DNA of 64,000 bases, taken from positions 135,966,001-136,030,000 of the forward strand of contig OX597814.1 of the NCBI GenBank assembly GCA_951406725.2, read 5' to 3'. Below are positions 6,507 through 55,068 of this stretch, one piece after another. The notes under the pieces were generated by a model. The model was given only the letters and a program-made list of their open reading frames with translations, had not been told where the DNA came from and searched no databases. The stretch is from Octopus vulgaris. Lineage: Eukaryota. The stretch's first letter is position 1. Every line of letters begins with the position of its first letter. The translations under genes were made by a program, and so were the position numbers.

Positions 6507-8191
6507 GTATTACAGACTCATGTCACCAATGATATCCTCAAGAAATAGACATACACCTGGTGATTAAAAAAAAAAAAGATTCTCACAAGGATTTGGGAAG
6601 CAGGTTTTATATAATATATTAAAAAAAAATTTTATTATGCTATGTTGTTAAGACAGTTGTGCATGCTTTACAGTGTAATGCTCCTCTTAATGCTAATTAC
6701 TTAACTGTGAAGTAGAAATTGCACTAATTTTTAGTTAAGATGATTGCCAAGAAAGCAATTGTAATGTGCTGCTTTGCTGTTTATTCCCACTAAACTATGA
6801 TCAAAAGCATTCCAGCTGTGATAATCTTGTATTTTGTTTTCAGAGACAGTAGGAAAATTTGAAGGAGATTTGGCTGATTTATTTAGTTGGCTAGGTGACT
6901 ACATTGTCTTTGTTTCTATCACAGATAGACACAAGGCTATCTCCCTCATTATTATTCCCCTTCTTAGTTGGGGATGCATTTGACTTGCACGTTACTTGGT
7001 GACCTTGCTGGTGCCATGCAAAAAGTGCCCAGTACACTTTGTAAAGTGGTTGGCATTAGTAAAGGTATCCATCTGTGGGAACCATGCCAGAGCAGGCAGT
7101 TGAGCTTGGAGCAGAGGTAGATTGCTACCTTATGTGAAACCATCAAATCCATACAAGCATGGAAAATGAATGATGATGATGATGATGTCCTTTGTTGAAA
7201 GGAAGATTGGAATAATTGCAATCATGCTGCTATGTTGAAATTAATAATCATGGGCTTCTTTGTATCATACCATAGCAATTGTGTTATGCTATTTGAGCAC
7301 AGGGTGCAGATTAACAGATTAATTAACATAATACTTCATGTGAGTAGTTTGAAGAGATCTGGCAGTAAGATCAATTACTCTATCAAGATGTAAATTTCAA
7401 TTACTTCAAAACAATCCATCTACACAAACAAGAAGAAATATTAACCTCACCCTCAAAATTCAGATTTGTTCATGACTTTCAATTAACAATATCATTAATT
7501 CATGACCTTTTTTTAAATTTTTTTTTTTTTAACATAAGCTTTTTATTTCTGGGAAATCCTTTTTATTTCTGAATCATTGAATTTCTGTATAACTTTTGCC
7601 CTTTGACAGCATTTGATCTCAGAATATTACTGAATACCATTTTCAGTTTACTTGATGCTCTAAGGTAGTGTTTCTCAACCATTTTTTATTTCTGGATCCC
7701 TTTGATTCCTGTTTTACTTGGATGTGTCCTCCTCTAGCCATTCGATGTTTAACCTTTTAGTGTTTAAACTGACCATATCAGGCCCAAATATTCTACCTGT
7801 TTTATGTTCTAAGTGACCATATCCAGCCCTTCACACCTACCCGACAATGTCAATCTAAAAACAAACGATTACATCATTGAAATCTCAAAACTACAAGACA
7901 ATGTATGATAAATACAAAGCAATGTGAATAAATAATATTTGATTATACTACCAAATCTTAATCAGTCTTTATATGTGAATATTATCTTGGAAAATTGACC
8001 AACTGACCAGCCATATTTTTTTTTCTTTTAAATATATAGCCTTCCATGAGATTGATATAGTGGCAAAAAGGCTGAATTTATAGAGTACTGAACTCCTTAT
8101 GGCTCTATTCTGAAAGTCATTACAGGTGTTTTATTATTTTTACTTAATGAGATACTTAATTCAATGTGTTTTAGTACACCTTCCTATTAGA

Positions 8192-40774: not shown

Positions 40775-41740
40775 CATAATGTTATTCATTAAAGCCTCAT
40801 TCAGTTTTAATAACTGCTTCTATATGAGATCTAAGTTGTCTACATGCTCAAATCAAGTGGTCCTGGTTCATTTTGGACATTATTTTGACTATGGTGCCTT
40901 TCAAAGAATCTTTGACTCATTGACCTCTCTCTCAAAAATTCTCCACACATAATAGTCCAATGGATTGAAGTCTGGGGAATTAAGAGGCCAAATGTTAGGG
41001 GTTATGTGATCATGAAAATTTTCAACCATCCATTCCTGCATTACTTGAACCTTAGAGTTTTGCTGAAACACATATGGCCTTTCATTGTGTACACTGTCTG
41101 TCCAGGGTTTAACAACTGTTTCCAGGACCTCAATGTAGGCAGCACAATGAACTCTAGGGCCTTTTGGAAAGAAGTGAGGAGGCATCACATGCCCTTCATT
41201 ACTGACAACTCCTAAAACCATGACAGTTGCTGGAAATTTTGTGTGTATAACTTTTGGAGTGTGCAGTTTTGGTTGAAGTTTTCCTGGCTGAGGAAAACCA
41301 TATCAAATCTGCTGGATTTTTCAGTTTGTTTAAGATCCTTTTAGATCTGATGTAGTGATTTTCTTTTGCTCTTTTTGACATAAATTGACCTTTCCTCATT
41401 ATATAAGACTATCTGATGTCTTCATGGACAACATTTCTGATTGTTCCTTCTGACACATGGAAATCTTTTGCAATTGACCTCATGGATATTCTAGGATTCT
41501 AATCAATGGCTTGTTGAACTTGCTGGATAAATTCAGGTGGTCTGATAATTTAAGAGTGTTTAGAATACTTTCCATGCTTTCATACTGGTGATACATTTCC
41601 ATCTTCCGTCTCTAACTCCTCATGAACTTTGTAGATGAAAGATCTGGCAACTTTTAAAAATCAAGACATTTCAAAATTGCTGTGCTCATCCTTTATAGCC
41701 ATGATAACAGCATGCCTCTTCATTTCCTGAGTAAGTTGAA
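40775..41740 (-). mobile_element. Decayed Tc1/mariner-superfamily transposase (maT/DD37D-like)
   Basis: MVLGVVSNEG...YIEVLETVVKPW...YVFQQ...WPLNSPDFNPLDYYVW, with frameshifts. Confidence 0.8.
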
Positions 41741-45174: not shown

Positions 45175-46890
45175 GTAAGATATATATTATTTTGGCTATT
45201 TTTATTGATTTTTGGACTGCTTAATTTTCCTGAAATTGTTTCTGTTCTTATTGACTATTCCCATTCATTTATGCTTGAAACAGTTCTTTGCCACAGACAC
45301 CACTTAACTCTAGCAGTAATCTATAGCTGTAACTTACAAAGAGGCAATTTCATGATTCAGTGTGAATTCAGACTGATTTGCACATTCTATCATGAAATTT
45401 AATAGGCTGAACAGTTGGATTTAACTTGCTGTTTACAGGTTTTTTTGAGGGATGGATTCTATTTAGAGCTCAATGCATAGTAGCCTCAATTCCACAATAT
45501 TTGCTAAAGAAGTGGTGCTTATTGGCTAATATATCATGTATTCATGAACATCAATTTGTTGGCGTCAAAAGAATTTATAAGCTTTGAGAGAATGTGAAAT
45601 AGTTAAATAATTCTCTTTGAAACAGTGGATCTTGAAGCTACTCAGCCTTCAACTTTTGCAACACAAGGGCTTTTTCAACCCAATATTTACATGCTTATTA
45701 TTTATAGCTTTATTTGCTTCAAGATCCACTGTTCCAAAAAAAAAATAATTTCATTTTATAAATTGATGTAATGTGAAATAAAACAGTCTAATGCTTTTTA
45801 GAGTAACTTATTGAAGAATAAATGTTGCTTCTGTTTAGTCTATTGTTTTTTTATGGTGTGTATTTTTATGTGTTTGTTTCTGTATCTGTGTGTGCATGTG
45901 TGTGTACACGTCTTTGTGTTCTGTATTTGCTAGACATGGATACATGCACACACATACACATGGACACATATACACACATACACACATAGATGCAGATGCA
46001 AATGCTTGTGCAAATAGGGATACACTCCATAGAAAGAATGGACTAAATAGACCAGGAGGACACATTGGGATGAAAGAAATGTTGCTTCATTATTCAGTTT
46101 GAACATTTATGACCTATTTGTAAAACAATATACGAATTTGCAGCAGTCTCTAACTTGTGTCAATAAGGAGAGAGAGAGAGAGAGAGAGAGAGAGATATGA
46201 TGATGATGATGTTTGGTGACCCACAGTGTTGAGATCAAATAAATTAACACACGTTATTGACTAAAACAGCAGTTCAAATAATGTTATAAATAATCTCATA
46301 AATTTACAGAACATGTAGATTATCTGCTTCAAAAAAGAATTTTATATTCTGTCATTACTACTATATATTATTTATCAGTCCATTTAGCTGTAAACAGCTC
46401 TATAGAGGTACAATTCTTTGTTGCAAGCACAACAGTAGCATTATTGTTACATTTCAGGCTCTTAGTCTTACATTTAAACAAGCAAATCTTTTAATTATTA
46501 CATCAGGCATGGTTCTGTGGTTAATAAGTTCAGTTCACAGCCGCAAGTTGTGTGTGTGTGTATAAAAATAATAATAATATGAGAGAATATTATTCCAAAC
46601 TTGCTAGGAAAAATTCAATTTAGAAATACTAAATCAAATTTCACAAAATATAATGATTGATTGATTGATTCTAGTTTCAGCTCTTGAGATGTGGCCATGC
46701 TGGGGCACCGCCATTTTAATATATATATAAATTAGAAAAAAACCCACCTTTTATCAATTCAATAATAAAATATTAAATTATACTATTGAGAAAGATTACA
46801 TATTATAAAAAGATTAAATATAAGATAAAACATATAACAATGATTAAGTAATGTGCAAAATAATAAATAAAACCTATATATTTGGTAGAA

Positions 46891-46985
46891 TAACGACACA
46901 TGTTTCGTGGCTATATTCAAGAAATGATAATAGTAATAATAATAGTAAAATCACTTCAATATAAATATAGCCACTCTTCAGGTTA
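46891..46985 (-). ncRNA. Type I hammerhead ribozyme motif, intact catalytic core
   Basis: Minus strand reads TAAC CTGAAGA GTGGCTATATT (46-nt loop) AATATAGCCAC GAAAC ATGT GTC GTTA. Stem I is 4 bp, stem II is a perfect 11 bp, stem III is minimal, and the cleavage triplet is GUC. Confidence 0.8.
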
Positions 46986-47135
46986 AAGATAAAAACAATA
47001 AAATAATTAATTAGATAAATTAATAGATATACGTAAATAATCTTGTAAAATACAAAATATCTTAACAAATATATTCTTGTTTAAATAAAAAAAATAGAAT
47101 AAAAAATAAGATACAATTAATTAAAATATTTGAAA

Positions 47136-47170
<35 letters not shown>

Positions 47171-47466
47171 AAATATATACATTAAATTAAATTATTAATT
47201 AATTTATTTATTTAATAAACATCTAAATAAAATCTTATACTCATTAAGTAATTTATATTAAAAATCTTAATGTTAAGTAATATACATAATGTTAGTACAA
47301 GCTATAAATATTAGAATTAAAAATAGGAAATGGTTCAAATATATACACAGCTATTAGATAAACTAACTATATTATTAATATATATGTAGTATCTATAGAT
47401 TTAATATTTTACTCAATTATATAGTTGACCAAAAATATCAATTAATATTAATATATATATAATATG

Positions 47467-47514: not shown

Positions 47515-49314
47515 TACCTAGCCAAAGATAAGCCCCTGTACCTGGCTTTTGTTGACATGGAGAAAGCCTTCGACAGGGTCCCTGATCCCTTATCTGGTGG
47601 TCAATGAGGAAACTAGGGATAGATGAATGGTTAGTGAGAGCTGTGCAGGCCATGTATAGGGACGCTGCTAGTAAGGTGAGGGTTGGCAATGAGTACAGTG
47701 AAGAATTCCGGGTAGAGGTAGGGGTCCACCAAGGCTCAGTCCTCAGCCCCCTCCTATTTATCATAGTCCTCCAGGCGATAACGGAGGAATTCAAGACAGG
47801 ATGCCCTTGGGAGCTCCTCTATGCTGATGACCTTGCTCTAATTGCTGAGTTGCTATCAGAACTGGAGGAAAAGTTTCAGGTGTGGAAACAAGGATTAGAA
47901 TCAAAGGGCCTTAGAGTCAATCTAGTTAAAACCAAAGTCGTAATCAGTAGGAAGGTAGACAAATCACAAACGCCTTCAGGTAGATGGCCCTGCTCGATCT
48001 GTAGAAAAGGTGTAGGTAGAAACTCTATAAGATGCACCAAGTGTAAGCTATGGACACATAAGAGGTGCAGCAATGTCAAAGGAAGGCTAACTAGGAAGAT
48101 GGTTTTTGTATGTGGCAGATGCTCAGGAACAATAAACACTGAAAATGCTCTGAGACCAACTTCCGTCACTTTCCAGGGAGAAAAACTAGAAATAGTTGAT
48201 AGTTTCTGTTACCTAGGTGACCAAGTCAGCAGCGGGGGTGGGTGTGCTGAAAGTGTAACTGCTAGAGTAAGAATAGCTTGGGCAAAGTTCAGAGAGCTCT
48301 TACCTCTGCTGGTGACAAAAGGCCTCTCGCACAGAGTAATAGGCAGACTGTATGATGCGTGTGTACGAACAGCATGCTACATGGCAGTGAAACATGGGCC
48401 GTGACTGCTGAGGATATGCGTAAGCTCGCAAGAAATGAAGCCAGTATGCTCCGATGGATGTGTAATGTCAGTACTCATACTGGCAGAGTGTAAGTACCTT
48501 GAGAGAAAAGCTGGACCTAAGAAGCATCAGTTGTGGTGTGCAAGAGAGACGTTTACGCTGGTATGGGCATGTGGCGAGAATGGATGAAGATAGTTGTGTG
48601 AAAAAGTGCCACACCCTAGCGGTTGAGGGAACCTGTGGAAGAGGCAGACCCAGGAAAACCTGGGACGAGGTGGTGAAGCACGACCTTCGAACTTTAGGTC
48701 TCACTGAGGAAATGACTAGAGACCGAGACCTCTGGAAGTGTGCTGTGCGCGAGAAGACCCGGCAGGACAAGTGAGACCATAACCCGTGGCCTTCTACATG
48801 GGATGGAGCCAGCCTACGTATGCATACCTTCCCTTCTTGGGACACAAAACTCTACTTGTGAAGACCTGTTGAGGCAAGTGAGGATCAGAATCGAAATCGA
48901 TCAATGGAAATTGCAGATGTGTTACCAGTGCTGGTGGCATGTAAGAGAACCATCCGTTCATGACCGTTGCCAGCGCCACCCTGACTGGCCTCGTGCCGGT
49001 GGCACGTAAAAAGCACCATTCGTTCGTGTCCATTGCCAGCCTCGCCTGGCCCCCGTGCCGGTGGCACATAAAAAGCACCATCCATTCATGGCCGTTTGCC
49101 AGCTCTGTCTGGCACCTGTGCGGGTGGCACATAAAAACCACCCACTACACTCACGGAGTGGTTGGCGTTAGGAAGGGCATCCAGCCGTAGAAACACTGCC
49201 AGATCTGACTAGGCCTGATGAAGCCTTCCTGGCTTCACAGACCCCAGTTGAACCGTCCAACCCATGCTAGCATGGAAAATGGATGCTAAACGATGATGAT
49301 GATGATGATGATGA
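47515..49314 (+). mobile_element. 5'-truncated RTE-clade LINE: RT, C-terminus, 3' UTR with internal repeats and (GAT)n tail
   Basis: AFVDMEKAFDRV, GVHQGSVLSPLLF, LLYADDLAL, FCYLG, RRLRWYGHVARM, GRGRPRKTW; stop at 48772-48774. Three single-base frameshifts near 47582, 48373 and 48482. Confidence 0.95.
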
Positions 49315-52713: not shown

Positions 52714-52964
52714 ATGTACATGATGTACATATATATAATATATACATTTATGTTATATATATATTACATATGTTATATATTATATATATATTATATATAG
52801 ATATTATATATATATATATATAAATTAGAGAAAAACCACTATTATGCAATTACAAACAATGATAGACATAAACCAAAACATAAATAAAAAATAAAATATA
52901 TTTTTTTAAAACATAGCTAGATCACAAAAAGTACAAAAATGAATAAACAATATATAAGTAAAAA

Positions 52965-53069
52965 AATCTACATACGTTTCATGTCTATAATTTAAATTCG
53001 AATTACAATTAAATTTAAATTTAATCAAAAACAATTCAGTTTAAAATTATAGTCACTCTTCAGGTTAAC
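52965..53069 (-). ncRNA. Hammerhead-like motif in left arm of foldback element
   Basis: Minus strand: CTGAAGA GTGACTATAATTT...AAATTATAGACAT GAAAC GTAT GTA. Long stem II with one mismatch; stem I is poor. Confidence 0.6.
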
Positions 53070-54392
53070 AACAATAATAACAATAATAGTTAAATAAACA
53101 AGCAAATAGAATTAAACAATATTTCTTAAAGAAATAAAATCATGATTTTCTTATAGAAGAAACTCCATTAACTAAATTTGAAACTTAAAACATTCGGACC
53201 AGTTACCTACAATACATTTATTATGTTAAATATTTAAGGTAAAAAAATAGAGTAAACAGATAGAAAAACGTATTTATCTGTGAAGAAATAATTTAGTTTA
53301 ATAAAAGAAACAATAATAAACTATAGAATATCTTTAACCTAGCTATACTCTAATATTTAATTACCAAACTATTTTACAAAACAATCACTCTTAATATTTT
53401 TAGATTTTAGTTCACATATAATATAATTATAAAATAATAAATTTATATAAAAGTACGTATCTAAATTATAATCAACAAATATATTAATTAAAAATCTACA
53501 TTTTTTCAATCAATAAACATATAAATAATTAGATAAATAAATTACTCCTTTATTACTTAAATAAATATTATAGATATCATTCCGAAAATATTTATGAAAT
53601 TTTAAAATAAAGCTAAATATTTGTAGTTTTCATTGATAAAATGCTTCCATCTGTTTTTTCTATTTCTTTAAGCCACGTATTCACGAGTAAATTTATAAAT
53701 GCTAAGTCATACGGTTTTCATAATACACCTTTTGTATTATGATAAGTAGACATTTTTACTTAAGAAATATTAATGTACTCTATATAAGTATTGATTGTTA
53801 AATATGAATTTCTAATTTTTTAAAAATTTGTTAATGATAATTTAGATACATACATTTATTTAATTATTTTTATTTTATAATTATTATATCTGAACATAAA
53901 CTGTGAAATATTAGTTTGTCACTTTGTGATTTAGATAGTAAAAATGTTTTAGTATAACTAAAAGTTCTTATTATATTTCTAGTACTATTAAATTTAATAA
54001 TAATAATAATAAGTACTTTTTTGCAAGTAATTTTATAAACGATAAATTATACGTTTTTACTTTGGGATTTTTCATTTCTTATTTTTTATTTCATAAATAT
54101 TTTCAGAATGATATCTATAATATTTATTTAAGTAATAAAGAAGTAATTTATTTATTTATATGCTGATTGATTGAAAAATATGGATTTCTAATTTCTATAT
54201 TTTTTAATTATAATTTAAATATGTACATTTATTTAATTTTATAATTTTATAATTATTATATGTGAACTAAAACCTAAAATCATTAAGTGTGATTGTTTTG
54301 TAAAATAGTTTGTAATGTAAAATATTAGAGTATAGCTAGTGAAAAGATATTCTATAATTTGTTAATGTTATATTTAAAACTAAAATATATCT

Positions 54393-54570
54393 GAGACCGT
54401 GTGCTGGAACGAAAACAATTGCAGCGTGGAAGGTGTTTATAAGCCATTTAAGAAACACATAAAACCGATAGATTCACTTCAACATTTAAATTTAATTTGT
54501 CGAAATATTTTTGTCACTTTAAGACCGCGACCTGTTCACTGACAAAACATCGTATGCAAGTACATCTCCA
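54393..54570. mobile_element. 178-bp insertion with 12-bp target-site duplication in right foldback arm
   Basis: taaaatatatct at 54381-54392 and 54571-54582. The left arm shows the empty site near 53280-53300. Confidence 0.8.
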
Positions 54571-54792
54571 TAAAATATATCTTCACAGATAAATACATTT
54601 TTCTATCTATTTATGCTATATTTTTACCTTAGGTTTGAACATGATAAATGTATTATAGACACCTGGTCCTACTTTTTAAGTTTCAAATTTAGCCAATGGA
54701 GTTTCTTCTATAAAAACAATCATGATTTTATTTCTTTAAAAAATATTGTTTAATTCTATTTGCTTATTTATTTAACTATTATTGTTATTATT

Positions 54793-54899
54793 GTTGACCT
54801 GAGGAGTGACTATACTTTTAAATTGAATTGTTTTTCGATTAAATTTAAATTCAATTGTAATTTGAATTGAAGTTATAGCTATGAAATGTATGTAGTTTT
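54793..54899 (+). ncRNA. Hammerhead-like motif in right arm of foldback element (sense to NDRG)
   Basis: CTGAGGA (54799-54805) GTGACTATA...TATAGCTAT GAAAT GTAT GTA GTT. Inverted homologue of 52965-53069 and more degenerate. Confidence 0.5.
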
Positions 54900-55068
54900 C
54901 TTACTTATTATATATTGTTTATTCATTTTTTTGTGATCTGGTTATATGTTTTATAATATATTTTATTTTTTCTTTATGATTTGGTTTATGCCAGTCATTG
55001 TTTGAATTGCATAATTGTGGTTTTTCTTTAATTTATATATATTATATATTTATATTGTGAAATTTGAT

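Follow-up and report, generated by a model that had tools for sequence, protein, structure and literature searches.

The 64,000-nucleotide stretch of Octopus vulgaris DNA analysed here (the window) carries at 46891-46985 a motif resembling a hammerhead ribozyme, which raises three questions: whether the motif is a genuine hammerhead, what kind of element carries it, and whether it ever cut RNA in the animal. The original prediction held that every conserved core position is present, and on the minus strand this proved right: C3-A9, G10.1-C11.1, G12-A14, A15.1-U16.1 and C17 can all be assigned, with C3 at 46981 and C17 at 46895. Read along the minus strand, the order is UAAC, CUGAAGA, an arm of 68 nt, GAA, ACAUGUGU, C and GUUA, as follows.

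46982-46985, minus strand: stem I, 5' strand UAAC, pairing with 46894-46891
46975-46981, minus strand: catalytic core C3-A9, CUGAAGA
46907-46974, minus strand: elongated stem II arm of 68 nt, in which 11 Watson-Crick pairs next to the core are followed by a hairpin with interruptions; total length predicted at about 25 bp
46904-46906, minus strand: G12 A13 A14
46896-46903, minus strand: stem III, 8 nt, the near-palindrome ACAUGUGU (family form ACACGUGU); pairing predicted between two hammerheads
46895, minus strand: C17; predicted cleavage between 46895 and 46894, the 5' ends of family copies clustering just downstream of the equivalent site
46891-46894, minus strand: stem I, 3' strand GUUA

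Stem I is open and stems II and III are closed, which is the type I topology; stem I has 4 bp, stem II 11-13 bp (25 with its extension) and stem III 2 bp in a monomer or 8 bp in a dimer. The motif is the only match in the window to a permissive type I descriptor (dinucleotide-shuffle control, 1/200). It departs from the canonical fast type I architecture, in which a stem II of about 4 bp carries a loop that contacts an internal loop of stem I: here the terminal loop is predicted to lie about 25 bp away from the core, and stem I ends at 4 bp. The lowest-energy predicted folds of the window copy, both as monomer and as co-fold, catch the core in an inactive hairpin. As had been foreseen for tight searches, an Rfam covariance-model scan found no hammerhead at E ≤ 1 in the window or in a copy of the related family D described below, and none in the latter at E ≤ 5; the Rfam matches in these two sequences were to miRNA models only, driven by microsatellites, and we rejected them. 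Owing to the long arm, Rfam and descriptor searches undercount such ribozymes. From its sequence, we are close to certain that the motif is a type I hammerhead within a copy of a Hydra-clade Penelope-like element (PLE).

The expectation of a complete hammerhead lying inside a repeat element was borne out, in that this type I motif belongs to a repeat family, here termed family A. The copy in the window, and a related pair nearby, are laid out as follows.

46720-47460, minus strand: body (3' UTR / pseudo-LTR) of a family A Hydra-clade PLE copy that is truncated at its 5' side
46655-46718, no strand assigned: 64-nt fragment of an unrelated repeat, an insertion that separates body from tail and is missing from other copies
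46561-46654, minus strand: optional tail of about 95 nt; full-length copies have it about 50 nt upstream of the ATG
52821-55030, no strand assigned: inverted pair of ends of a second family (family B), with degraded hammerheads (C3 at 53063 on the minus strand and at 54799 on the plus strand) and arms of 76-77 nt

The window copy has a fixed 3' end at about 46720, inserted into (TA)n, and extends some 565 nt upstream of the predicted cut to its 5' end. This element end does resemble the foldback arm at 52821, as originally proposed. Contigs from sequencing runs have joints that skip 64-70 nt, supporting the 64-nt insertion; such contigs from two runs, RNA only by guess and uninformative as to ends and strand, cover part of the stretch and were left out as expression evidence. 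The tail appears to form two small hairpins, conserved by eye in families A, B and C (described below), which are possibly start sites for reverse transcriptase (RT).

We searched the genome assembly (2.8 Gb in 227 contigs). A 401-bp query gave 2807 candidates, and all 40 of those scored were 90-100% identical; a 26-nt and a 19-nt motif had 254 and 392 exact matches, and their reversed controls none. The 30 family A copies that were fetched vary at their 5' ends and share 3' ends fixed at the equivalent of about 46720, followed by (TA)n and often by the additional 95-nt tail. The hammerhead lies upstream of two fixed 3' ends, by about 175 nt for the first and 270 nt for the second. One locus (L032) is 91% identical to the window copy over 732 bp and, 1544 nt upstream of the cut, passes into a GIY-YIG C-terminus, and RT and endonuclease (EN) pieces occur together in fetched loci L063-L074, often with an inverted 5' arm. 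The hammerhead lies in pseudo-LTRs that flank the RT-EN ORF: those of families C and D have it on both flanks, those of family A on the downstream side as well as within inverted 5' arms. All of the family A ORF copies examined are broken. The window copy lies 3% off the family majority, and decay among family copies is alike in core, stems and flanks (1-5% versus 3.5-3.7% at non-CpG A/T sites), from which we take the window copy to be a dead insertion; selection on individual copies was not detected. Among window ORFs of at least 130 aa there is no convincing exon of a host gene, and the window copy shows no sign of host function. A LINE RT fragment at 47586-48404, presumably RTE-like, adjoins the 5' end of the copy, and the ORF at 40901-41302 reads like a fragment of what we take to be a Tc1/mariner transposase.

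Sister families were found by RT search. The closest intact sister, family C, has 80% RT identity, open frames of 838-852 codons and a compact arm of 16 nt; a 26-nt motif of this family has 4259 exact matches. Family D has 54% RT identity and an 85-nt arm in both of its pseudo-LTRs, and all 28 of 28 copies keep a perfect core and palindrome together with a stem I of 2 contiguous pairs. This family appears very young: the 40 copies scored are all identical over 301 bp, and its open frames are near 960 codons. In family E the arm reaches 100-103 nt.

Searches of Pfam and PDB sequences left the ORF without a useful family, so its clade was assigned by comparing its motifs with those given by Craig et al. 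(2021, PMC8557442). A protein homologue search gave 40 matches, mostly proteins of 600-800 aa on contigs of 2-4 kb and two of them from Argonauta, none bringing a clade label. By motif reading there is a single ORF with RT plus a C-terminal GIY-YIG domain, and it has in common with the Hydra-clade PLEs described in PMC8557442 the replacement of DKG by DKT (SDKT in the family ORFs), a CxCX5C linker (CTCRDKNTC), the absence of CCHH and insertion at (TA)n targets. The CxxC..E..N..CxH pattern reads CSLC..E..N..E..CKH, and the RWK position is KWK in A and C, RWR in D and RWK in E. The host element is a Hydra-clade PLE by motif match to section 11 of PMC8557442, the published RTs having been compared by eye; the Neptune clade, considered first, was rejected in the light of that paper. 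Unlike published Hydra PLEs, which are typically under 3 kb (a size that is not diagnostic), the octopus units measure about 4.4-6.3 kb, the hammerhead-to-hammerhead span being 5.6 kb in D, 6.0-6.3 kb in C and an estimated 4.4 kb or so in A.

As for the stem II arm, the original description of a perfect 11-bp stem closing a 46-nt loop stands for the stem, which has 11 Watson-Crick pairs (13 pairs with one G-U included), and fails for the loop: the inner 46 nt are predicted to fold as a hairpin (z -2.65; 2/200 shuffles equally stable), so that the whole arm would be an interrupted hairpin of about 25 bp. Nor did we find that stem II differs among these relatives yet still pairs: none of 12 predicted pairs changes on both sides among six family A and B sequences, and the relatives in the window have an A-C mismatch at stem II pair 4. 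Covariation in the arm is limited to the more distant families D and E, where 6 of 32 pairs change on both sides (8 sequences). Arms span 51-103 nt across several families of the genome, with 56-80 nt in family A, and the predicted arm stability is -40.6 kcal/mol in family D versus -22.6 kcal/mol in family A. In many long arms (families A2, B, D and E) the first 3-5 stem II pairs are followed by a mismatch or internal loop, at the place where a canonical loop II would sit; the subfamily of the window copy has a G-C pair there instead. In an RT tree of 18 copies from the Octopus genome only, midpoint-rooted, the compact-arm family C is nested among long-armed families, meaning that the arm was either lost in C or gained repeatedly. 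In flanking DNA about five more type I hammerheads were noticed, which are unrelated and combine arms of 51-65 nt with a palindromic stem III, at these loci.

L026 +1099, L096 +583, L025 -605, L045 +135, L080 +1332 and L149 +2580: further long-armed hammerheads

Stem III bears on how such a ribozyme would cut. The prediction that ACATGTGT lies one transition from a palindrome was correct, and that palindrome, ACACGTGT, is the form that family hammerheads most often have (28 of 63 distinct contexts with all C17 and flank variants; 22 of 63 with C17 and GUUA). A perfect 8-nt palindrome, in seven different sequences, occurs in 15 of 17 representatives, in a scan that had fixed only the outer two pairs (outer AC and GT). 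The inner pairs of stem III are impossible within one strand, which fits the dimer model as set out in PMC4209133 and PMC6765202, and the palindrome thus points, probably, to cleavage as a dimer, in support of the dimers originally proposed. For an intact family A copy the active dimer is predicted to lie below two folded monomers (-58.3 versus -54.6 kcal/mol), and the active monomer 5.7 kcal/mol above its own minimum free energy. Stem I also varies yet pairs, being UAAC/GUUA in A, GAC/GUC in B and CCAC/GUGG in C. Separately, two family A hammerheads occur in direct tandem, 411 bp apart (L065 8196-8711, L066 7552-8067), a natural dimer substrate.

Whether RNA was cut in vivo can be approached through the 5' ends of genomic copies, given here relative to the predicted cut at 0 (minus, upstream; plus, downstream). 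The main sample comprised the first 100 of 392 exact matches, in genome order, of a motif at +38, minus the window copy (n=99); some of these loci may be segmental duplicates. We re-read 11 automatic end calls by eye, of which seven at -42 to -53 and one at +13 were indel artefacts and were moved upstream, while the other three shifted within -100 to -15. Of these 99 copies, 65 end at 0 to +37, two at -14 to -1, five at -100 to -15 and 27 further upstream, a density of 1.7 ends per nt below the cut versus 0.07 above it. Nine ends, one of them an internal jump, lie at 0 to +3. Ends are most frequent at +11 to +15, on an ATATATA run at +10 to +15 (24 ends); with the ends on this run left out, 17 ends lie at 0 to +9 and none at -11 to -1. 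Two further samples, which partly overlap the first and were kept unpooled, gave a score-ranked control queried from +44 with 18 of 29 ends at 0 to +13 and none at -14 to -1, and a first search with 8 of 29 ends at -1 to +2, although there the query edge lay on the cut. In family B, 14 of 29 ends lie at +2 to +17 and none at -60 to +1; six ends at -189 to -196 were discounted as the limit of the reference copy rather than real ends.

Such a wall of 5' ends at the predicted cut makes it likely that cleaved RNA was reverse-transcribed in vivo. A possible objection is that no cleavage took place and that RT stalled at the folded ribozyme or the hairpin base, with trimming and (TA)n microhomology then spreading the ends downstream. 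The ends at -12 and -14, which are at the hairpin base, are what stalling would give; the arm is predicted to be very stable; and the ATATATA run, which takes its 24 of 99 ends, could anneal to a (TA)n target without any cut. Against this, the 17 ends at 0 to +9 are set against none of the 99 at -11 to -1, stem I offers just 4 weak pairs, and the stronger arm of family D was crossed in 28 of 30 copies. We consider stalling unlikely, though it is the most serious of the alternatives. A splice acceptor at the cut was also considered, and rejected: the 17 family A junctions checked share no leader to the left of the junction.

Families C and D provide a contrast. In D, where 28 of 30 copies run through the arm, one of 30 begins near the cut in spite of the perfect core and palindrome, a point that counts against cutting. 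Nine of the 30 begin at -563 to -578, a span of 16 nt surrounding a TCATA motif that lies behind two CCAAT boxes, and this pile-up is likely, to judge from the sequence, to mark a transcription start; we saw no second ribozyme there. Family C, whose DNA search gave no matches and which was sampled by exact motif instead, lacks a sharp wall: 10 of 30 ends lie at +7 to +26 and 13 of 30 at -40 to -50, many of them being the two arms of one insertion. At least four of the -40 to -50 ends carry a leader that starts at TCATA and is joined at a GT-AG junction. This spliced leader consists of a first exon of about 20 nt whose junction lies 8 nt upstream of stem I, and the hammerhead is uncut, an arrangement resembling the 5' UTR intron of Drosophila Penelope as described in PMC2377424 and PMC4209133. 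The relevant loci are as follows.

L143, about 7115: family D TCATA start, 571 nt before the cut (copies L215-L244)
L135, about 6790-6815 and 2322: family C leader evidence (short copies L286, L287, L294 and L295)

With C and D ends at likely starts and A and B ends at the cut, the places where copies of this clade begin seem to correspond to RNA 5' ends. The pile-ups in C and D at likely starts sharing TCATA indicate that RNA starts do leave walls in the clade, and so the A and B walls might themselves be capped ends, arising from promoter starts at or just after the hammerhead, rather than cuts. However, neither A nor B has TCATA at the cut, and their downstream sequences differ, yet both walls are at the cut; A and B are related, so the two walls are not independent proof. 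We give this promoter reading a little less weight than stalling.

It could also be argued that the pseudo-LTR carries the motif as a passenger without activity, its long arm being a chance AT-rich expansion. The similar decay of core, stems and flanks, the lack of two-sided covariation in A and B and the compact arm of the closest intact sister would all suit a passenger, but neutral decay after insertion is expected for any dead copy, the core is fixed across families whereas stem I, stem III and the arm vary without losing their pairing, and the wall of ends is left unexplained. We regard a mere passenger as the least probable of these alternatives. The preferred reading, drawn from the footprint of ends, is that the family ribozyme probably did cut its own RNA in vivo.

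On this preferred reading of cleavage, a transcript from an upstream promoter would be cleaved after C17, probably as a dimer through stem III. RT would start inside the RNA at two tail sites, as reported in vitro for the Poseidon element PAc of Anolis, and run back to the RNA 5' end, which on cleaved RNA is the cut, giving many copies of 175-270 nt that would lose 0-37 nt while joining (TA)n targets. About a third of copies, those that keep their hammerhead, would derive from RNA that was uncut or had been re-ligated; the window copy, reaching to about -565, would be one of them. The long arm would be tolerated, and in some families under structural selection, while being neither necessary nor sufficient for cutting.

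Hydra-clade PLEs were already known to carry such hammerheads, and those described in PMC8557442, for example Hydra-1_Obim, have a loop 2 of 3-10 nt on 3-7 bp. The octopus motif has in common with the Hydra-1_Obim type a type I fold near the 3' end, a short stem I and a short palindromic stem III, and differs from the Hydra PLEs published there in its arm, which measures 56-80 nt in family A while relatives reach 103 nt, and in a stem III that is a perfect 8-nt palindrome in most octopus representatives. Since both hammerhead and protein sequences differ from what is given for Hydra-1_Obim, the octopus element is a separate family. The metazoan PLE hammerheads of Cervera and de la Pena (2014, PMC4209133) likewise sit in pseudo-LTRs, with a helix I of 4-5 bp, an enlarged helix II, a palindromic helix III, a dimer model and single motifs in truncated copies; their helix II is 6-8 bp versus about 25 bp here. 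Those hammerheads cleave weakly in vitro, by the account in PMC4209133, which states that in vivo evidence was absent; in PMC8557442 in vivo cutting by PLE hammerheads and its purpose are called unclear. The wall of 5' ends suggests, as indirect evidence read from genomic sequence, that cleavage occurs in vivo.

In PAc (Frangieh et al. 2024, PMC11167929), as here, there are two fixed 3' ends with a tail between them and internal RT starts, the tail being 30-40 nt versus about 95 nt here. In vitro, as described for PAc, uncut RNA is the dominant substrate, cleavage is dispensable and no reads end at the cut. The PLE-X1 hammerheads of Selaginella (File S2 of PMC8557442) deviate likewise, with a loop 2 of about 29-34 nt; they differ in being from an EN-minus plant element with a shorter arm. 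Animal non-LTR retrozymes, as presented in PMC7229834 and bioRxiv 10.64898/2026.07.22.740005, likewise have type I hammerheads, dimer cleavage and a link to PLEs. They consist of short non-coding units in tandem, every unit having its hammerhead, whereas the octopus motif is single and lies in an ORF-bearing element, the one exception toward tandem units being the 411-bp partial tandem in L065/L066. By the features tested, the octopus motif belongs with the dimer-type hammerheads found in Hydra-clade PLEs, not with the retrozymes. It is new in degree, its arm being several times longer than the published ones; the literature searched, with Lunse et al. 2017 and some supplements outside it, contained no long-armed octopus PLE hammerhead and no cut-site footprint.

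The main weight of the finding lies with the family footprint rather than with the window copy. Insertion ends that form a wall at the cut leave a record in the genome, open to counting in any assembly, and the sister families, some with such a wall and some lacking it, offer a ready comparison for the bench. We tentatively propose, as a possibility short of an even chance, that octopus-type Hydra PLEs carry an undescribed class of long-armed hammerheads and that the genome records which RNA was copied: cut in A and B, spliced and uncut in C, unspliced and uncut in D. If this is true, where the template begins at its 5' end in vivo would be set by how efficiently the RNA is cleaved, a property tuned by stem I and not by the arm, and the conserved arm of 50-100 nt would be a platform that binds protein or promotes dimers.
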